A stretch of 64,000 nt of DNA from an uncultured Bacillota bacterium (GTDB taxonomy: Bacteria; Bacillota_I; Bacilli_A; RF39; UBA660): positions 85,050 to 149,049 of the forward strand of contig CAJLEF010000002.1 in NCBI GenBank assembly GCA_905205665.1, read 5' to 3'. The stretch's first letter is position 1, and each line of letters opens with the position of its first letter. The translations under genes were made by a program, and so were the position numbers. Below, one piece after another: positions 5,639 to 40,286 of the stretch. The notes under the pieces were generated by a model, which was not told the DNA's origin, made no database searches, and worked only from the letters and a program-made list of their open reading frames with translations.

Positions 5639-6859
5639 TTAATTATTAATATTTAAATGATACGGATTTTCTTTACTACCATCACCTAAAATATTTGTCT
5701 TTTTAACAAGAGTGATAACCGGTCTAAAAAACAAATTGGTATCTTCTTGAATATCTTTTATTAAAGAACCATTTGACATAACCGCGATGTAGTTTGTTTT
5801 ACCATTTTCTTTTTTATTAGGTGTCATAGTCCACCAAGAACTTTGTAAGTTAGGAAGATATAAATAATAATCCTTATTTTCATTCGTAGTTGCTCCGGCA
5901 AACATGACTTCATCCGCGGTTAAAGTAGCAATTTTTTTAGATAAAGAAGTACCATTACAAGCATTAGTAGGATTTGCTTCTTGAAATAAACGACTATTAG
6001 AAAGATATTCTATTTTGCCATTTTCATCTAAGTTAACGCTGTTATCATAACAATATCTCGTGCTAGCAATATAACTATCATTATCCATTAAAAGTGTATT
6101 ATAAAACTTTTCTAATTCGGTATTTAAATTACTTGTCACAAAATCATTATTACCAAGAGCACTTGTTACATTAAAAGGTATCATTGCTTCAGTAATACTA
6201 TTTAAAACTAATTTAACTGTTTTATCTTCATTTATTTTAACAATGCGCCACATTTGATTGGCAAACATTACATAATTATTTTCAACCTTACCGCGAAAAT
6301 AATAAACATCCCCATCTTGTTCTGCTTTTCTTATTAAACCATTTTCTTCTTGACTTTCTAAAATGGTATTATTTTGTAAAATAACACTGGCAAAACTATT
6401 ATCAATTTCTTCAATATCTGTTTCAATTTCAAACGTTAAAGCATTTTTTAAAGGATTTGAAATATCCATAGTATATCGATGTGTTTCTTGTGGTTCAATT
6501 TCAATACGACTACCTAATAATGTTTTAGAAAATGAAGAAGAAAAACTTTCAAATACTTGATTGTTAGATTTCAAAGTATAACTTGCTTCATCGGCATTTA
6601 AAACATTAGTTAATTTTACATAATAATACTTAGTATCATCAGAATGATTTGTCACTGAAAATTCTATTTTTTCAGTCTCATTATTTACTTTTATTTTGTT
6701 GCCATTTATATAATTTATAGAAAGTTCTTCTGTTACTAGAGTAAGAGCCTCTCCATAAGTTTGATTTAATCTATATTTACGATATTCAGAAAAAACAAAT
6801 AAACAAGCAAGGAAGATGATAAAAATTATAACCAAAGCGATTATATACTTTTTTTTCAT
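5639..6859 (-). CDS. exported/membrane-anchored paralog-family protein P1 (divergent member)
   Basis: N-terminal TM. It shares the family motifs YYFRGKVENNYVMFANQMWRIVKIN, LTADEVMFAG, SWWTMTPN and FRPVITL...GDGSKENPYHL with P2-P5. Alternative starts lie at 6865 and 6868. Confidence 0.7.
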   Translation of the reverse strand: MKKKYIIALVIIFIIFLACLFVFSEYRKYRLNQTYGEALTLVTEELSINYINGNKIKVNNETEKIEFSVTNHSDDTKYYYVKLTNVLNADEASYTLKSNNQVFESFSSSFSKTLLGSRIEIEPQETHRYTMDISNPLKNALTFEIETDIEEIDNSFASVILQNNTILESQEENGLIRKAEQDGDVYYFRGKVENNYVMFANQMWRIVKINEDKTVKLVLNSITEAMIPFNVTSALGNNDFVTSNLNTELEKFYNTLLMDNDSYIASTRYCYDNSVNLDENGKIEYLSNSRLFQEANPTNACNGTSLSKKIATLTADEVMFAGATTNENKDYYLYLPNLQSSWWTMTPNKKENGKTNYIAVMSNGSLIKDIQEDTNLFFRPVITLVKKTNILGDGSKENPYHLNINN

Positions 6860-6896
6860 GGCCATCAACCCTTCTTATAATATAAGTATATTAATT

Positions 6897-6912
6897 TGAC
6901 AAAGATATGTCA
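6897..6912. promoter_or_regulatory. palindrome TGACA-AAGATA-TGTCA overlapping the predicted -35 of the P1 promoter (candidate operator)
   Basis: Inverted repeat seen directly in the sequence. On the minus strand, TTGTCA (6897-6902), a 17-nt spacer and TATAAG (6874-6879) form a plausible promoter. Apart from a one-nucleotide difference in spacer length (N6 here, N5 there), the TGACAAA...ATATGTCA core is the same as in the palindrome at 9803-9823. Confidence 0.35.
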
Positions 6913-6954
6913 ATTTATTTTGAAGGACTTGACAATTTTTTTAAGCCTTCCATC

Positions 6955-8307
6955 CTAAGCAACAACATAGGGATCGGTCATGGTACCACTTCCTGTAATA
7001 GTCACATCAGAGCGAATATTGATTACTGGTGTTAAAGAATAATTACTTCCAGAAGTATAGGGATCATCAAATCTTCCAACAGCATCAATGATAAATACAT
7101 AAATTCCCCAATAAGTTTTATCAAATGGATTATAACCTCCTACAGGTGTCATGGTCCAAATATTTTTGCCAGTAGTTAGAAAGCATTTATAACAACTTTT
7201 TTGATAATTATATCCACCATTAAAATCACCACCACCATAGCCAGATAACATTGCTTCATCTGCACTTATTAAACCAACAGGATAAGTTAGTGCCTTATTA
7301 CCAACGTTTGATGATGTAATCGTATAAAAATCATTAGTATTTTCACATGACAAACTTGGTGTTCCATGTGAAATTCTTAAATACCCATTATAATAAGTAG
7401 TAATCGTACCTGTTCCAACACCAGACTGCAAATTCAGGGTTGAACGATCACCACAAAAGCCTGTTTCTTTATCTAAATAATTGATATAAGAATTAAGGTT
7501 ATTTTTAAAAAAATTATCATTATTCTGTTTTATAACTGATGAAATCAGCAAACCATGTTGTTTATTTTCTTCATACATATACCCAACATACATATTATTA
7601 CTATAATTATTAAAAAAAGAACTTGACATTGCTTGCCTATCATCAGATATTTCCCCATTCTCGTGGGCACTTGTTCCATCATAGATCATTCTTATGGAGC
7701 CATTACTATTAATACGAACAATTCGCCAATAAAAACCTGCGAATTTAACATAATTATTTTCTACCGAACCTCTGTAATAATAAGTTGGCTTTCCATCATA
7801 GTCTGTTGTTTCAAAAATACCCTTTTCGTGTGATTCACATGATGAATCATCACAAGCTGACTTTGTAAAATCTGGAGTATAACTATTCACTTCAATATTT
7901 CCTAAGGTGGTTTTTACTGTTTTGGCTGTTTTATTAAAATATAAAGTACATTTAGTTCTTGTATTTGTAGTCGCACTATAATTATGATAATCTCCGATAA
8001 ATTTCCAACCAGCATTATCCCAAGTTGGAACAACGCCATTATTACAATTTGATTTTGTCTCATCTAAAGTGTAACCTGTATTTTGAAGAGGCATATTTCT
8101 TGATATAACGCCATCTATATAATAAGCAAAATAAATATCTCCTGGATCTTCTACTGTTCCATTGATAACATCAAAATCTTTCCTTTCTTCATAGAAAGCA
8201 TAACTTTGATAAAAAATTACATAACCCGTTATAATGCCAATCATAAAAACAAATACGATTATGGCTATTTTTTTAGGCTTTTTTATTTTAAATTTTTCTA
8301 ATTTCAT
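6955..8307 (-). CDS. exported paralog-family protein P2
   Basis: 450 aa. N-terminal TM/signal with SYA|FYEE. Blocks are near-identical to P3/P4/P5, for example PTYYYRGSVENNYVKFAGFYWRI(V/I)RINSNGSIRMIYDGTSAH. It starts 12 nt after the P3 stop, behind GGTGGTGA. Confidence 0.8.
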   Translation of the reverse strand: MKLEKFKIKKPKKIAIIVFVFMIGIITGYVIFYQSYAFYEERKDFDVINGTVEDPGDIYFAYYIDGVISRNMPLQNTGYTLDETKSNCNNGVVPTWDNAGWKFIGDYHNYSATTNTRTKCTLYFNKTAKTVKTTLGNIEVNSYTPDFTKSACDDSSCESHEKGIFETTDYDGKPTYYYRGSVENNYVKFAGFYWRIVRINSNGSIRMIYDGTSAHENGEISDDRQAMSSSFFNNYSNNMYVGYMYEENKQHGLLISSVIKQNNDNFFKNNLNSYINYLDKETGFCGDRSTLNLQSGVGTGTITTYYNGYLRISHGTPSLSCENTNDFYTITSSNVGNKALTYPVGLISADEAMLSGYGGGDFNGGYNYQKSCYKCFLTTGKNIWTMTPVGGYNPFDKTYWGIYVFIIDAVGRFDDPYTSGSNYSLTPVINIRSDVTITGSGTMTDPYVVA

Positions 8308-8319
8308 CTTTTCACCACC

Positions 8320-9669
8320 TTAACTAACAACATAAGGATCAGTCATAGTGCCACTTCCTGTAATAGTGACATCAGAACGAATATTGATTACTGGACGAAG
8401 ACCATACGTGCCGTAAGTATAATTATCATCGATAAGACCAGAACCACCCACAGAAAACAAAAGTGCAAGCCAGTCTGTAAAACCAAATGGATTATATCCC
8501 CCAGCTGGGGTTATAGTACAGAATCCACTTCCAGTTACTAAATAACTGCTGTTATTTGATTTCATTCTAGTATAATAGCCATCAAATACTCCTCCAGCAT
8601 GACCTGCAAGTACAACTTCATCGACTGTGATTAAACCTGTGGGGTAACTTAATTTTTTGTTACCACTTGACGCACTTGCTACGGTGTAATAATCATTGGC
8701 GTTTTCACAAGTAAGTGTTGGAGTACTTTCTGCTACTCTTAAATACCCCTTATTATAAGTAATCACGATTCCCGTTCCGACTCCACTTTGCCGATTTAAA
8801 TTAGAACGGTCGCCACAGAAACCAGCATTCGTATCTAATTTTGAAGCATAACTAGAAAGTTTATCGGTATAAAACTTATCTACATTTGTTTTAATAATTG
8901 AAGATGTTCCCGTTCCATTAGCTTCACCTGATGTGTACATATAACCTACATACATATTGTTGTTATAATTCGGATTAAATTGACTTGTGCCATATTGTCT
9001 ATCTTCTGATGCTTCACCATTACTATGAGCACTTGTTCCATCATATATCATTCTAATAGAACCGTTGCTATTGATACGAATAATTCGCCAATAAAAGCCC
9101 GCAAATTTCACATAATTATTTTCTACCGAACCTCGGTAGTAATAAGTAGGATTGCCATCTGTATCTGTTGTTTCATAAATCCCCTTTTCGTGTGATTCAC
9201 ATGTTTCATCATCACAAGCTGATTTGGTGAAATCTGGAGTATAATTATTTACTTCTATATTTCCTAAGACAGTTGAAACTGTTTTGGAAGTTTTATTAAA
9301 ATACAAAGTACATTTGGTTCTTGTGTTTGTTGTGGCACTATAACTTGTATAATCTGTTACTCCTTGCCACGTACTATGATTCCAATTTATTTTTACTCCA
9401 TTCGTACAATTAGATTTAGTTTCATCCAAAGTATAACCTGTATTTTGCTTAGGCATTTCTCTTGATATTTCTCCATCAATATAATACGCAAAATAAATAT
9501 CTCCTGGGTCTTCTACCGTTCCATTTATGACATCAAAATTTTTATTTTCCTCATAAAAAGCATAACTTCTACCAAATAAAAAATATCCCAGTAAAAGGCC
9601 AATGCCTATTAAAAATAGGTTTATACTTGTTTTCTTTATATTCTTAACTTTAAATTTTTCTAATTTCAT
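8320..9669 (-). CDS. exported paralog-family protein P3
   Basis: 449 aa counted from MKLEKFKV (ATG 9667-9669 behind GGTGAG). This start is homologous to the P2 start. The track ORF extends to 9771 only because no stop codon intervenes. Confidence 0.8.
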   Translation of the reverse strand: MKLEKFKVKNIKKTSINLFLIGIGLLLGYFLFGRSYAFYEENKNFDVINGTVEDPGDIYFAYYIDGEISREMPKQNTGYTLDETKSNCTNGVKINWNHSTWQGVTDYTSYSATTNTRTKCTLYFNKTSKTVSTVLGNIEVNNYTPDFTKSACDDETCESHEKGIYETTDTDGNPTYYYRGSVENNYVKFAGFYWRIIRINSNGSIRMIYDGTSAHSNGEASEDRQYGTSQFNPNYNNNMYVGYMYTSGEANGTGTSSIIKTNVDKFYTDKLSSYASKLDTNAGFCGDRSNLNRQSGVGTGIVITYNKGYLRVAESTPTLTCENANDYYTVASASSGNKKLSYPTGLITVDEVVLAGHAGGVFDGYYTRMKSNNSSYLVTGSGFCTITPAGGYNPFGFTDWLALLFSVGGSGLIDDNYTYGTYGLRPVINIRSDVTITGSGTMTDPYVVS

Positions 9670-9732
9670 TTTCTCACCACTATTACTATGCCCATATTTT
9701 TCTATTCTAACACGACTTATTATGTCATATTT

Positions 9733-9761
9733 ATGATAACATAGTTTATTTTTCAAGACAA
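9733..9761 (-). promoter_or_regulatory. predicted sigma-A-type promoter of P3-P2
   Basis: Minus strand: TTGTCT, a 17-nt spacer, then TGtTATCAT (extended -10), about 65 nt upstream of the P3 start. Confidence 0.4.
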
Positions 9762-9802
9762 TAGTTAGCATGACATTTCATACCGTGTTTTTTCATACAA
9801 TA

Positions 9803-9823
9803 CTATGACAAAATATGTCATAG
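9803..9823. promoter_or_regulatory. 21-bp palindrome CTATGACA-AAATA-TGTCATAG (candidate operator in the P3 / XRE divergent region)
   Basis: Perfect 8-bp arms seen directly. It lies between a TACAAT -10-like box (9796-9801) and the RBS of the XRE gene. Additional ATGACAT half-sites occur at 9721-9729 and 9770-9776. Confidence 0.45.
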
Positions 9824-9832
9824 GTGAGAGTT

Positions 9833-10042
9833 ATGATTAAAGAATATCGAAAAAAAAGAGGCTATACCCAAGAAAGGCTAGCCGAAGAATTATTTATTTC
9901 TACAAGACAATTACAACGAATTGAAAAAAATGAAACCAGTACGACACTGGAAACATTAAAAAGAATTAAAAAAATATTAAAAATACCATCTGAAGAAATG
10001 GTCCAAATTTTTGAAGATAAAGATGAAGTTAAAAACCCTTAA
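9833..10042 (+). CDS. small XRE-family HTH transcriptional regulator
   Basis: 69 aa from MIKEYRKKRGYTQERLAEELFISTRQLQRIEKNE (classic Cro/CI HTH). It is divergent from P3. The track starts at an upstream GTG (9824). Confidence 0.75.
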   Translation: MIKEYRKKRGYTQERLAEELFISTRQLQRIEKNETSTTLETLKRIKKILKIPSEEMVQIFEDKDEVKNP

Positions 10043-35701: not shown

Positions 35702-36378
35702 TTTTGCACCTCAATAATTACCATATTTGTATAGCTTTCCTTTAGTTTTTCATCTGGATAATAAGTATCAAAAAATCTACCTACAAAACTTATAGGTTGT
35801 ATCCCATTATGTCTTAAAGTTTGTCTTATAAGAGCCCCCCATGACACGGTAAAATCAGCTATTAAAATAACTAATAATGTTTTGGTAAGAATCGTCCCAA
35901 ATTTAATAGGAAAAGACTCAACAATGTTAGATATTAAAGGATAAACTACTTTAACAAGTAAAAGAGCAAGTAATCCCCAAACAAAAGCATAAGGAATGGT
36001 TGTTCGCCCATTAATGTTTAAAAATTCATTCGTATAATCCCAACTAACAGTTCCTAAAAAAGTTTCTTGTAAAAAGGAAATTAAGTACTCAAAACCTCCT
36101 CCAAGTAAAGCCCCATAAAAAATTGTTTGATAATCTGGTCTTTTTTTTCGGCCTAAAATTGCTATCATTAAAACGGCGCCCATACCGTAAATAGGACTAA
36201 TAGGTCCATATATAACACCTCTTCTTAGTTGCCAAACAAGTTCATGATGATAGTGAAAATGTATAACTAAATTTAAGATTTCTTCATAATAAGCACCAAA
36301 AACACAACCTACTAAAAAGATCCAAAACATTTTGTAAAAACACATTCCACTGGCAAATTTTTGTTCATCTTTAGCCAT
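35698..36378 (-). CDS. polytopic membrane protein, 'putative ABC-transporter type IV' (CmpB/PF06541-like)
   Basis: 226 aa with about 6 TM helices. The IYGPISPIYGMGAV motif resembles that family. It overlaps the GT2 start by 4 nt. Confidence 0.5.
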   Translation of the reverse strand: MAKDEQKFASGMCFYKMFWIFLVGCVFGAYYEEILNLVIHFHYHHELVWQLRRGVIYGPISPIYGMGAVLMIAILGRKKRPDYQTIFYGALLGGGFEYLISFLQETFLGTVSWDYTNEFLNINGRTTIPYAFVWGLLALLLVKVVYPLISNIVESFPIKFGTILTKTLLVILIADFTVSWGALIRQTLRHNGIQPISFVGRFFDTYYPDEKLKESYTNMVIIEVQK

Positions 36379-36435: not shown

Positions 36436-37794
36436 TCAATTTAGTTCATATGGGTCATTTTTTGTACCGCTTCCTTTGATGTTAACATCAGAGCTGGCAT
36501 TAATAACAGGGCGAAGACCATAAGCGACACTCACATTACCATCTTCAACACTACTATAGTAGGAAGGCGTAACAACAAAAGCAAGAGCTATCCAATCGAC
36601 TCCGCCAAAATAATTATATCCTCCTACTGATGTCATTGTCCAAAAATAATCACCAGACGTCAAGTAAACTCTATTATTTTTTTTCATATGACTATAAGTG
36701 CCATCAAATAAGCCACCTGCATAACCTGCTAGCAGAACTTCGTCCACTGTTATTAAACCAATCGGATAAGTTAAAGACTTATTGCCACTTGAAGCGGTAG
36801 ATACTGTATAATAATCACCTTCATTTTCACAAGCTAATGTCGGAGCACTTGCTTCTACTCTTAAATATCCTTTATTGTAAGTAGTAACTGTTCCTGTTCC
36901 AACACCGCTTTGATTGTTTAAATTAGAACGGTCGCCACAGAAACCAGCATTCGTATCTAATTTTGAAGCATAACTTGAAAGTTTATCCGTATAGAACTTA
37001 TCATTGGCTGTTTTAATTGTCGAAGAAGTGCTTGTACCATGATCTTCTCCAGATGTATACATATATCCCATATACATATTGTCATTATTGTTTATATTAA
37101 ATTGACTTGTCCCATATTGTCTGTCTGTTGATGACTCACCATTTTGATGAGCACTCGTACCATCATAAATCATTCTGATAGAACCATTACTGTTGATTCG
37201 TATAATACGCCAAAAATAACCTGCAAATTTGACATAGTTGTTTTCCACTGAACCACGGTAGTAATATGTAGGTTTAGCGTCTGTGTCTGTTGTTTCATAA
37301 ATACCTTTTTCATGGGATTCACATGATGAATCATCACAGGCTGACTTTGTAAAATCTGGAGTATATGTGTTAACTTCAATATTTCCTAAAGCCGTTTTTA
37401 CTGTTTTAGCTGTTTTATTAAAATATAAAGTACATTTTGTTCTTGTATTTGTTGTAGCACTATAATTATGATAATCACCAATGAATTTCCAACCAGCATT
37501 ATCCCAAGTTGGAACTACTCCATTATTACAGTTTGATTTTGTTTCATCTAAAGTGTAGCCTGTGTTTTGAAGAGGCATATTTCTTGATATAACGCCATCT
37601 ATATAATAAGCAAAATAGATATCTCCCGGATCTTCTACGGTTCCATTTATGACATCAAAATCTTTTTTTTCTTCATACAAAGCATAGGATTTATAAAACA
37701 AATAACTACTTATAGAAAGTAAAAGAAATCCTATGACCAATATGACATAAGATTTTCTTTTATAATTATTTTCTTTATATTTTTTTAATTCCAT
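36436..37794 (-). CDS. exported paralog-family protein P4
   Basis: 452 aa from MELKKYK (ATG 37792-37794 behind GGTGAAGATA). This start is homologous to the P2/P3 starts. The 5' half is about 90-95% identical in DNA to P5 and P2. Confidence 0.8.
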   Translation of the reverse strand: MELKKYKENNYKRKSYVILVIGFLLLSISSYLFYKSYALYEEKKDFDVINGTVEDPGDIYFAYYIDGVISRNMPLQNTGYTLDETKSNCNNGVVPTWDNAGWKFIGDYHNYSATTNTRTKCTLYFNKTAKTVKTALGNIEVNTYTPDFTKSACDDSSCESHEKGIYETTDTDAKPTYYYRGSVENNYVKFAGYFWRIIRINSNGSIRMIYDGTSAHQNGESSTDRQYGTSQFNINNNDNMYMGYMYTSGEDHGTSTSSTIKTANDKFYTDKLSSYASKLDTNAGFCGDRSNLNNQSGVGTGTVTTYNKGYLRVEASAPTLACENEGDYYTVSTASSGNKSLTYPIGLITVDEVLLAGYAGGLFDGTYSHMKKNNRVYLTSGDYFWTMTSVGGYNYFGGVDWIALAFVVTPSYYSSVEDGNVSVAYGLRPVINASSDVNIKGSGTKNDPYELN

Positions 37795-37820
37795 TATCTT
37801 CACCATAGTTTCCTATGATG

Positions 37821-37853
37821 ATTATAACAGATACCCCCCCCCCCGACTGTCAA
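37821..37853 (-). promoter_or_regulatory. P4 promoter: TTGACA - GTC-G11-TATCTGT (21-nt spacer) - TATAAT with TGn extension
   Basis: Read directly on the minus strand. The -10 is at 37821-37826 and the -35 at 37848-37853. About 27 nt separate the -10 from the ATG. Confidence 0.55.
37834..37844 (-). repeat. homopolymeric tract, C11 on plus strand = G11 on the coding strand
   Basis: Counted directly: ataCCCCCCCCCCCgac. Confidence 0.95.
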
Positions 37854-37854
37854 G

Positions 37855-38762
37855 ACGGTTTGGAGAGTTTATAATATCTTTATACCACTTTGACAGAGGG
37901 TATATAATATAAATAATTTTAGAAAGGAGTAATTTTATGGCTAAAAAATATGATAATAATTTTAAATCTATGATTGTTAATTTAATTTGTAATGAAAAAC
38001 ATTCTACTATTAAAACTGCTGAACAATTTGAGATTCCTCTCAAGACTGTTGAAAAATGGATTACTGCTTACAACAAAAATAATAGATGTTTTGATTCCGA
38101 TTATAAAACTCAAAGTCAAATTATCGATGATTTAAAAAAACAAATTTCTAGATTAGAAAAAGATAATGAAATACTAAAAAAAACGATTACTTTATTAGCA
38201 AAAAAGGAATAAAGAGGTTTGAAAGTGCTGAACTATTAGTTTCAAAATATAATTATAAGCTTAATGAAGTCTATAATGCTTTAAATATTAATAAATCTTC
38301 TTATTTGTATTGGAAATGTAAAGGGAAAAATAATCTAAATAAGTTAGCTACTTTTTGTCAGCAAATTGTTTCTGTTTATGCTGATTCAAATGGAGTTTAT
38401 GGTGCACCCAAAATAGCTGCTGTTTTAAAGACAAAAGGCATTACTTGTTCCACTTCTAATGTTTCCAAAATCATACATAGATTGGGCATTAGAAGTATTG
38501 TTTCTAAGAAATTTCCTCATAGAAAAAGTAATTTAACAGACAAAGAAAAATCCTTAATTATTAATTTAATTAAAGATTTAGAAATTAACAAAATCAATCA
38601 AGTTTGGACTACTGATATTACTTATATTCAAACTATCAACGAAGGCACTTTTTATCTGATTTCTTTCTTTGACTACTTTTCCAAAAAAGTTGTTGCATGG
38701 GGTTTATTTTCTGACCAAAAAACAGATAAAATTTTAAAGGTTTTAGATGATGCTATTGAAAA
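37855..38762 (+). mobile_element. IS3-family insertion sequence remnant (left part only; 3' end deleted)
   Basis: OrfA plus a -1 frame OrfB N-terminal portion with an A_AAA_AAG slippery site. OrfB stops after the first catalytic D (WTTDITY) region. No inverted repeats were identifiable, so the boundaries are approximate. Confidence 0.75.
37937..38212 (+). CDS. IS3-family transposase OrfA (HTH)
   Basis: 91 aa. The HTH (KTAEQFEIPLKTVEKWI) is followed by a leucine-zipper-like tail (LKKQISRLEKDNEILKK), typical of IS3/IS150 OrfA. Confidence 0.8.
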   Translation: MAKKYDNNFKSMIVNLICNEKHSTIKTAEQFEIPLKTVEKWITAYNKNNRCFDSDYKTQSQIIDDLKKQISRLEKDNEILKKTITLLAKKE

Positions 38763-38766
38763 AAGA
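38203..38766 (+). pseudogene. IS3-family transposase OrfB, truncated (lacks most of the DDE/rve domain)
   Basis: The -1 frame is open from the slippery site at 38200-38206. It contains GAPKIAAVLK and NQVWTTDITYI (first D) and ends at ...DDAIEKR, then reads into flanking DNA. Confidence 0.7.
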
Positions 38767-38801: not shown

Positions 38802-40154
38802 TCAATTAACAACATATGGGTCTGTCATAGTGCCGGTTCCATTAATGGTGACATTAGATTTTAAATTAATAACTGGGCGCAGACCAATCTCAACACCAGG
38901 GCTACGGTCGACAATTTTACCAGTGAAGCTCATAGTGAACACAAACGTAGTTGTATCAAGATATCCAAACGGATTATAGAACCCGGCAGGTGTCATAGTC
39001 CAAAATACATTTTCTGAAATCAAATAACTTCCATTATTTGATTTTTGATGGCTATATTCGCCATCAAAGACACCACCGGCATGACCAGCAAGCATTGTTT
39101 CATCAACAGTGATTAAACCAATCGGGTAGTCTAATTTTTTGTTACCACTTGAAGCGCTGGTTACTGTATAATAATCACTGGCATTTTCACAGGCAAGGGT
39201 TGGTGCACTTTCTTCTACCCTTAAGTATCCTTTATTGTAGGTAATAACGGTTCCTGTTCCAACTCCACTTTGTTTATTTAAATTAGAACGGTCCCCACAG
39301 AAACCAGCATTCGTATCTAATTTTGAAGCGTAACTTGAAAGTTTAGCGGTATAGAACTTATCCACATTTGTTTTAATTGTTGAAGATGTTCCTGTACCAT
39401 GGGCCTCACCCGATGTGTACATATAGCCTACATACATGTTGTTCTTATTATTTGGATTAAATTGACTTGTGCCATATTGTCTAACCGCTGATAATTCGCC
39501 ATTCGCGTGAGCACTCGTTCCATCATAAATCATTCTAATCGAACCATTACCGTTAATACGAATAATTCGCCAATAGAATCCTGCAAACTTAACATAATTG
39601 TTTTCTACCGAACCTCTGTAATAATAAGTAGGCTTTCCATCATTGTCTGTTGTTTCATAAATACCCTTTTCGTGAGATTCACATGAAGAATCATCACAAG
39701 CAGACTTTGTAAAATCTGGAGTATAACTATTCACTTCAATATTTCCTAAAGCCGTTTTTACTGTTTTAGCTGTTTTATTAAAATATAAAGTACATTTGGT
39801 TCTTGTATTTGTGGTCGCACTATAATTATGATAATCACCAATAAATTTCCAACCAGCATTATCCCAAGTTGGAACAACGCCATTATTACAGTTTGATTTT
39901 GTTTCATCTAAAGTGTAGCCTGTGTTTTGAAGAGGCATATTTCTTGATATAACGCCATCTATATAATAAGCAAAATATATATCACCAGGATCTTCTACGG
40001 TTCCATTTATGACATCAAAGTCTTTCCTTTCTTCATATAAAGCATAGGATTTATAAAATAAATAACTGCTTATGGAAAGTAAAAGAAATCCTATGACTAA
40101 TACGACATAAGATTTTCTTTTATAATTATTGTCTTTATATTTTTTTAATTCCAT
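38802..40154 (-). CDS. exported paralog-family protein P5
   Basis: 450 aa from MELKKYK (ATG 40152-40154). The family blocks are as in P2-P4. Confidence 0.8.
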   Translation of the reverse strand: MELKKYKDNNYKRKSYVVLVIGFLLLSISSYLFYKSYALYEERKDFDVINGTVEDPGDIYFAYYIDGVISRNMPLQNTGYTLDETKSNCNNGVVPTWDNAGWKFIGDYHNYSATTNTRTKCTLYFNKTAKTVKTALGNIEVNSYTPDFTKSACDDSSCESHEKGIYETTDNDGKPTYYYRGSVENNYVKFAGFYWRIIRINGNGSIRMIYDGTSAHANGELSAVRQYGTSQFNPNNKNNMYVGYMYTSGEAHGTGTSSTIKTNVDKFYTAKLSSYASKLDTNAGFCGDRSNLNKQSGVGTGTVITYNKGYLRVEESAPTLACENASDYYTVTSASSGNKKLDYPIGLITVDETMLAGHAGGVFDGEYSHQKSNNGSYLISENVFWTMTPAGFYNPFGYLDTTTFVFTMSFTGKIVDRSPGVEIGLRPVINLKSNVTINGTGTMTDPYVVN

Positions 40155-40180: not shown

Positions 40181-40212
40181 ATTATAACAGATACCCCCCC
40201 CCCGACTGTCAA
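40181..40212 (-). promoter_or_regulatory. P5 promoter: TTGACA - GTC-G10-TATCTGT (20-nt spacer) - TATAAT with TGn extension; A9 tract upstream
   Basis: Read directly. The -10 is at 40181-40186 and the -35 at 40207-40212. It is a duplicate of the P4 promoter apart from tract length. An A9 run (T9 at 40223-40231 on the plus strand) lies in the UP-element position. Confidence 0.55.
40194..40203 (-). repeat. homopolymeric tract, C10 on plus strand = G10 on the coding strand
   Basis: Counted directly: ataCCCCCCCCCCgac. Confidence 0.95.
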
Positions 40213-40286
40213 GGGACTTTTATTTTTTTTTGACTGTTAGTAAGTATTAAAATTTTCCCTAGTCACAATTTATTTTAATTTTATAA

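Follow-up and report, generated by a model that had tools for sequence, protein, structure and literature searches.

Two homopolymeric G tracts inserted between the -35 and -10 elements of predicted surface-protein promoters are read here, with a probability of about 0.7 from sequence comparison, as slipped-strand phase-variable promoter switches, which would operate in an on/off mode or as volume controls. The tracts, G11 and G10, belong to the promoters of P4 and P5, two paralogous genes within the window (the whole 64,000-nt stretch of DNA from an uncultured Bacillota bacterium that was analysed). A poly-G switch at this position had been proposed in a first-pass annotation. Of this proposal, the switch itself is strongly supported by the conservation of the tract in position and strand, its length polymorphism from G9 to G13 and the presence of frameshift tracts within coding regions in sister species, while the part that set the ON state at G7-G8 found no support.

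The upstream region of P4 reads, on the minus strand, C-TTGACA-GTC-G11-TATCTGT-TATAAT-catcaTAGgaaactATGgtgaagataATG, exactly as first described, and the same element with G10 is present upstream of P5 as had also been stated (Table 1). The spacers are 21 nt (P4) and 20 nt (P5), in line with the lengths given before. The P4 gene starts 27-39 nt downstream of this TTGACA/TGnTATAAT promoter, the tract being located by sequence between -35 and -10. The cassette combines an A-rich UP-like stretch with a perfect -35 and a perfect -10 extended by TG, followed by a leader of some 20 nt; as judged from these motifs, it is close to a maximal sigma-A promoter, with the spacer as its one apparent flaw. 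At 29.5% GC, the window carries only two G/C runs of 7 or more, those of P4 and P5, and a single further run of 6 or more, the C6 at 35835-35840, so that the rarity of such runs noted earlier by eye is borne out for the entire window. Base composition gives an estimated chance expectation of about 6e-4 G/C runs of 10 or more per 64 kb. Since the P4 and P5 tracts are paralogous, they should be counted as one evolutionary origin. The longest A/T run of the window is the A9 at 40223-40231, located upstream of the P5 -35. A stretch of A(6-9)TAAAAG is found directly upstream of the -35 in many cassettes, the number of A's differing between loci, and could represent a second, weaker length-variable element. 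Search against Rfam detected no RNA family anywhere in the window.

Table 1. Positions of the P4 and P5 promoter elements, the genes and the intervening insertion element within the window.
Feature	Position	Strand	Basis or remark
P4 gene, for a 452-aa member of a large hypervariable protein family, predicted to be secreted or anchored by its N-terminus	36436..37794	-	
Leader with in-frame TAG stop, GGTGA ribosome-binding site and optional upstream ATG at 37806	37795..37820	-	sequence and variants
P4 candidate extended -10, TGtTATAAT	37821..37829	-	21 nt from TTGACA; TATAAT itself at 37826-37821
G11 homopolymer, P4 promoter spacer	37834..37844	-	sequence; homologous cassettes G9 to G13
P4 candidate -35 hexamer, TTGACA	37848..37853	-	exact sequence
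IS3-like element, about 0.9 kb, between P5 stop codon and P4 promoter	37877..38766 (ends approximate)	+	
P5 gene, 450-aa paralogue	38802..40154	-	82.5% identical to P4
P5 promoter cassette, TTGACA-GTC-G10-TATCTGT-TATAAT	40181..40212	-	spacer 20 nt
P5 cassette parts	TTGACA 40212-40207; TATAAT 40186-40181	-	
G10 homopolymer, P5 promoter spacer	40194..40203	-	orthologous locus L077 likewise G10
A-rich stretch A9TAAAAG, candidate UP element adjoining the P5 -35 upstream	40215..40231	-	motif recurs in other cassettes

The position of the tract relative to the reading frame determines what it can influence. An in-frame TAG is present between the -10 and the first ATG, which places the G tract outside the reading frame; with this TAG between tract and ATG, and with no ATG upstream, the window tracts differ from the intragenic frameshift type. 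Being upstream of the ORF, they can act on transcription only. In homologues that are devoid of the first ATG, the conserved GGTGA is retained before the ATG equivalent to 37794, and the start of P4 at 37794 assigned in the first-pass annotation is thus reasonable.

Comparison of the tracts among relatives drew on 76 loci of representative genomes, on 6 located in metagenome contigs and on 51 surrounding identical proteins in other samples. These related loci, 628 kb from uncultured gut Bacilli, contain 91 G/C runs of at least 8, every one of them poly-G on the gene strand, and nearly all were located directly 5' of, or within the first codons of, genes for this family or for other predicted exported proteins. 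Cassettes were identified by a pattern including an exact TTGACA, the hexamer being present also in the copies listed without this requirement. A total of 66 cassettes were detected in 35 flank contexts, with tract lengths of G9 (4 copies), G10 (46), G11 (10), G12 (3) and G13 (1), plus two copies with the interrupted tract GGCGGGGGG, which was the sole find when short or degenerate tracts were sought among the cassettes. The upstream flanks differ among these copies and the 3 nt following TTGACA vary. A single metagenome-assembled genome (prefix CAKOHH01; loci L001-L007) carries at least 11 cassette copies. A separate pattern scan of metagenomes, allowing tracts from G4 upward, yielded just 6 stretches with 7 cassettes, all of G9-G10.

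Three arrangements could be distinguished. Arrangement A, the type found in the window, is TTGACA-NNN-Gn-TATCNNN-TATAAT. Arrangement B, detected in more distant species, consists of TTGACA or TTGAAA, 7-9 nt, and G9-12 abutting TATAAT, giving spacers of 18-19 nt, near the optimum. In arrangement C, found in sister species, the tract is located in the first codons (among others, L019 at 4776, L022 at 2901, L027 at 1851, L030 at 2981, L032 at 2981, L039 at 2971 and L040 at 2969), and the ORF is open only at tract lengths 3 apart (G9/G12). The arrangement C tracts are G9-G11, most assembled copies being G10 and out of frame, and a few being in frame. As read from the sequence, arrangement C is unambiguous in that such a tract could serve only as a frameshift contingency switch. 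That arrangement C occurs in this very family of proteins offers the best indirect case for a switching role of the promoter tracts as well.

The comparison of tract length across strains and assemblies, recommended in the first-pass annotation, revealed polymorphism in 7 of the 10 flank contexts for which at least 3 samples were available, all from short-read metagenome assemblies, in which consensus errors may produce differences of +/-1 within G10 and several contigs stop at the cassette or close to it. The allele sets at orthologous loci were G10/G9, G10/G11, G11/G13 and G9/G10/G11. For six loci, flank identity was determined from 1,450 nt on the downstream side and at most 40 nt on the upstream side, and the three polymorphic loci among those measured showed 0-1 substitutions across a flank of about 1,490 nt. 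Five loci vary in pure tract length, and for four of these the data come in part from contigs longer than 15 kb; many contigs are 15-140 kb. The tracts of the window (G11 and G10) and those of the homologues (G9-G13) are within the range of about 8 or more in which a homopolymer is regarded as hypermutable. The GGCGGGGGG allele, detected in two unrelated samples (L104 and L107, gene P0095), is associated with protein and flanks identical to those of the G10 alleles; with nine positions and a 19-nt spacer in place of G10, it is possibly a 'locked' allele.

The spacing of the promoter elements allows a prediction of the expression state. In this lineage, pairs of relaxed -35 and -10 elements (TTGAnn/TAnAAT) peak at a spacer of 17 nt, and the promoters of family members with arrangement C are TTGAAA-17-TAAAAT or TTGTTA-17-TACAAT. 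Against this norm of 17, the spacers of 20-21 nt in the window are clearly out of register and make an OFF or low basal condition the most likely one for the assembled sequence. If the promoters are indeed phase-variable, G10-G11 is probably the OFF or low state, as far as motif spacing can tell. The spacers of all 66 cassettes are 19-23 nt, and a spacer of 17-18 nt was found in 0 of 66; no natural tract length among these copies gives a spacer of 17 +/- 1 nt. The earlier designation of G7-G8 as the ON geometry found no support, since none of the 66 cassettes has a tract of fewer than 9 positions. The lengths cluster sharply around G10. Either the ON variants never form the majority, or the ON state is not set by classical spacing.

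Three other ways of restoring the register were considered and rejected. The hexamers that could act as alternative -35 elements in register at G10-G12 (ACAGTC, CAGTCG and AGTCGG) are unlike TTGACA, an alternative -10 at TATCTG would leave a spacer of about 13 nt, and shortening of the G tract by adoption of the A-form cannot, by our own estimate, recover 3-4 bp.

Taken as phase-variable switches, the tracts would work as follows. Each G tract would be a hypermutable simple-sequence repeat inside a sigma-A-type promoter, in which slipped-strand mispairing at replication adds or removes G's, presumably at a high rate within the population. Gain or loss of G's would alter both the distance and the rotational phase between -35 and -10. 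With transcription starting downstream of the cassette TATAAT, as we infer, the -35 would not be properly usable at G10-G11 (20-21 nt), and the promoter would be OFF or would give a low basal level through the extended -10 alone. The ON state would correspond to rare shorter variants, the ON lengths being predicted from the spacing. The outcome would be a heritable yet reversible change in transcription of a predicted surface-protein gene, presumably under the control of tract length, and many independently switching copies per genome would generate combinatorial surface diversity.

A more far-reaching reading is that the lineage operates a large poly-G 'phasome' on a single hypervariable surface-protein superfamily, composed of frameshift tracts and a portable promoter cassette, in which the cassette is either non-classical, its 20-nt G10 spacer being read through a factor or a G-tract-specific DNA structure, or an extreme OFF-biased form of bet-hedging, with ON cells always a small minority. 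The cassette is 2-6 bp out of register in 66 of 66 assembled copies. We regard this reading in its entirety as unlikely.

Doubtful as well is the view that the cassette is an element of fixed length, for which the G10 spacer of about 20 nt is the working state, used with a MerR-like activator that makes up for the excess spacer length, or with a protein or DNA structure specific to G/C runs, the length differences being noise. MerR-type promoters use spacers of 19-20 nt; G10 is the mode in 46 of the 66 cassettes, the spacers are never 17-18 nt, and a weak inverted repeat, TGACAG...CTGTTA, surrounds the tract. Against this, tracts from G9 to G13 occur at loci with otherwise identical measured flanks, and the inverted repeat is not conserved in variants with TTGACActc or tatcattTATAAT. 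G10 is also the mode of the coding tracts, where it is out of frame, and the mode therefore looks like a mutational equilibrium and not a selected working length. While the spacer length fits the MerR type, dyad symmetry is missing from this spacer, which consists of a run of G, and no MerR-family gene is in the neighbourhood. The neighbours of P4 and P5 are a PopT-like gene, the IS element, CmpB and a GT2 glycosyltransferase, no regulator gene of any kind being next to either copy.

It is improbable that the tract is a neutral passenger, hypermutable but with hardly any effect of its length on expression, transcription being constitutive and driven from TGnTATAAT independently of the -35. The perfect -10 with its TG motif is in agreement with this possibility, as an extended -10 could render a promoter largely -35-independent and lessen the effect of tract length; so are the absence of in-register copies (0 of 66) and the integrity of most ORFs despite the apparently OFF spacing. 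That most downstream ORFs are intact indicates maintenance of the genes. A neutral G10, however, should decay at 29.5% GC, yet the tract is kept in place, on the gene strand, in dozens of paralogues and in several species, and coding-region tracts exist elsewhere in the same family. In one variant (L023) the TG motif is missing, yet TTGACA and G10 are retained. The recurrence of TTGACA and the A-rich stretch alongside the tract suggests that the -35 matters, which also counts against a neutral tract.

An origin of the runs or their length differences in sequencing or assembly (poly-G from two-colour chemistry, or homopolymer miscalls) is very improbable: the assemblies are short-read throughout, +/-1 in G10 is error-prone and contigs often break near the cassette, but the tract is surrounded by conserved unique flanks in assemblies of many independent studies and assemblers, is inside long contigs with 8-45x coverage, recurs as the interrupted GGCGGGGGG allele in two unrelated samples, and is present also in runs ERR209619 and ERR636383 of projects registered in the early to mid 2010s, which by our own reckoning predate two-colour instruments. 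Such errors could account for a part of the length variation, not for the existence of the tract.

P4 and P5 belong to a family with more than 3,800 members in public data, exclusively from assemblies of uncultured gut 'Bacilli', 'Tenericutes', 'Mycoplasma sp. CAG:776' and 'Candidatus Ventrenecus', the hosts being present in assembled human gut metagenomes of Hadza, Nepalese and other origin. The use of TGA as the stop codon of P4 and P5 indicates the standard genetic code. Five paralogues are present in the window, at 5639-6868 (distant), 6955-8307 and 8320-9669, together with P4 and P5, of which only the last two carry the G tract; the region upstream of the tandem set (5.6-9.7 kb) is ordinary. 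A small gene of the XRE-type helix-turn-helix class (MIKEYRKKRGYTQERLAEELFISTRQLQRIE...; about 9809-10030, plus strand; read by eye) is found immediately upstream of these tandem paralogues (5639-9771, minus strand), in divergent orientation. The three tract-free tandem paralogues may be conventionally regulated.

Neither P4 nor P5 gave a match against Pfam and NCBIfam, even at E=10, and a profile search of PDB sequences with both was equally without match. An exact-protein look-up of P4 returned nothing on record, and megablast of the locus against phage and plasmid collections gave no match. The distant paralogue at 5639-6868 is 27% identical to P4 over 295 aa (E=1e-16), and two of its relatives, P0136 and P0221, pass the threshold of DUF6273 (PF19789). 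With P4 itself below any Pfam match at E=10, its link to DUF6273 would be one of transitive homology only. At the N-terminus of P4, a charged stretch leads into a hydrophobic helix (helix 3-42 in the model), and from this membrane helix and the distant DUF6273 relatives P4 can reasonably be predicted to be a surface or secreted protein. Directly after the helix, at residues of about 36-42 of P4, a [ST]-Y-A-[LM]-[FYW] motif is kept across divergent members, which we take to resemble the SipW-dependent (TasA-type) signal peptides. The SipW-like motif hints at cleavage and export, not at a permanent anchor. AlphaFold prediction with 23 close homologues was useless (pLDDT 38.7), and rose to pLDDT 59 and pTM 0.58 when 38 sequences of greater diversity were supplied. 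Foldseek search of the PDB with the better P4 model gave nothing significant, the faint hints being C-type-lectin-like with probability of 0.16-0.18.

P5 and P4 form a tandem pair split by the IS3-like element, which contains a 91-aa orfA and a truncated 164-aa orfB with a partial rve domain. In a nearly identical strain (L077, 5800-7360), a single gene is located between the PopT-like and CmpB-like genes, in place of the segment 36436-40213 of the window. This gene has the upstream flank and 5' end of the P5 type together with G10, and its protein is 99% identical to P4. The single chimeric gene in one strain and the P5-IS-P4 order in the other indicate that the two differ by duplication or by recombination-mediated deletion between paralogues.

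Poly-G gene starts in L083 (13645-14556), L028 (780-1686) and L109 (1-546) are closely preceded by the same IS3-like element, again divergently oriented. The copy in L083 precedes a different gene, and that in L109 is inserted at a locus which is IS-free in other samples (L108, L110-112). This recurrence points either to target preference for such intergenic sites or to spread by recombination. The IS element as the carrier of the promoter was rejected: the majority of cassettes are not near any IS, and in L001 the shared 'ataaagatattataaactc' stretch occurs in the absence of the element. In L080 (2482-2700) and L083 (13440-13644, minus strand), a cassette carrying G10 or G9 precedes the decayed beginning of a family gene that has lost its ATG, and about 170 nt downstream there is a gene for a different membrane-anchored protein (MEKKKRNIL...) with its own TGtTATAAT. 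This layout indicates that the cassette can come to sit before other genes. The cassette-bearing family gene in L015 (2887-3080) shows a 28-nt deletion between short direct repeats within the membrane-helix region, breaking the frame, which points to a gene in decay or to an error of assembly.

Promoter tracts of this kind have been described in several bacteria. In Treponema pallidum tp0126 and Neisseria meningitidis porA, poly-G is located between -35 and -10, the optimum spacer being 17 nt (PMC7864442). As in the cassettes studied here, a gene for a surface or outer-membrane protein has a sigma-70-type promoter with the tract in its spacer, and tract length sets the -35/-10 distance. Their natural lengths, however, include the 17-nt optimum, while the 66 copies here range from 19 to 23 nt with none in register; in addition, the host here is an uncultured gut commensal of a Gram-positive lineage, in which the cassette is multiplied over many paralogues. 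Transcription of the T. pallidum genes tprE, tprG and tprJ requires a tract of G8 or fewer, while most tprL amplicons, representing the tract in vivo, are G9, with the G8 reporter active and the G10 reporter near background (PMC7864442). The tpr genes likewise form a putative surface-protein multigene family with a G tract (about 7-12) for each copy, and their pattern of activity at G8 and near-background output at G10 would be a partial precedent, by analogy, for OFF-biased promoters in the present family. In contrast, the tpr tracts are at or next to the -10 and the transcription start, with no clear -35/-10 spacer, the mechanism is stated not to be one of spacing, and the proteins are unrelated.

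For Mycoplasma hyorhinis vlp, PMC10502178 (citing Citti and Wise 1995) describes indels in promoter poly-A that switch transcription of each gene ON or OFF independently and produce combinatorial surface variation. Likewise, vlp is a variable surface-protein family, in a small-genome relative among the Bacilli/Mollicutes, with a highly conserved 5' promoter and leader cassette including a homopolymer for each gene. The vlp tract is poly-A, and the genes encode lipoproteins that contain internal repeats; here, in contrast, the tract is poly-G, and the DUF6273-related proteins have a signal anchor but no lipobox and are encoded in the standard genetic code. The phasomes of Campylobacter and Helicobacter and the pilus G-tract of Bifidobacterium breve consist of rare G/C runs of about 8-13 that are concentrated in surface-structure genes and switch by slippage (PMC6321876, PMC2823697, PMC9187656). 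These organisms are similarly AT-rich or gut-associated, and the coding tracts of the sister species are of the same type, but the tracts known there are mostly intragenic and act by frameshift, while those of the window are upstream of the ORF. The class of mechanism is thus already known from porA, tp0126/tpr and vlp, while the lineage and the protein family are new. In agreement with the earlier remark that no such switch had been described for this protein family, no such paper for these organisms was found in the literature searched.

Mapping of phase variation in the gut microbiome has centred on invertible promoters and methylation, and homopolymer switches are known chiefly from pathogens. 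The tracts are most likely a new member of the known switches. Two aspects reach past the single locus, namely a putative lineage-wide poly-G phasome with transcriptional and translational tracts on one protein superfamily, and the unexplained absence of in-register promoters among the 66 assembled copies of arrangement A. The lack of any in-register copy presents a concrete puzzle as to how such promoters fire. Strain-level analyses of such metagenome-assembled genomes would miss a whole layer of variation, and the G tracts probably cause assembly breaks. Host IgA, mucus glycans or phages are candidate partners with which the protein family may interact. Taken together, the tracts suggest that abundant, uncultured and genome-reduced gut Bacilli diversify their surface through dozens of independently switching poly-G tracts.
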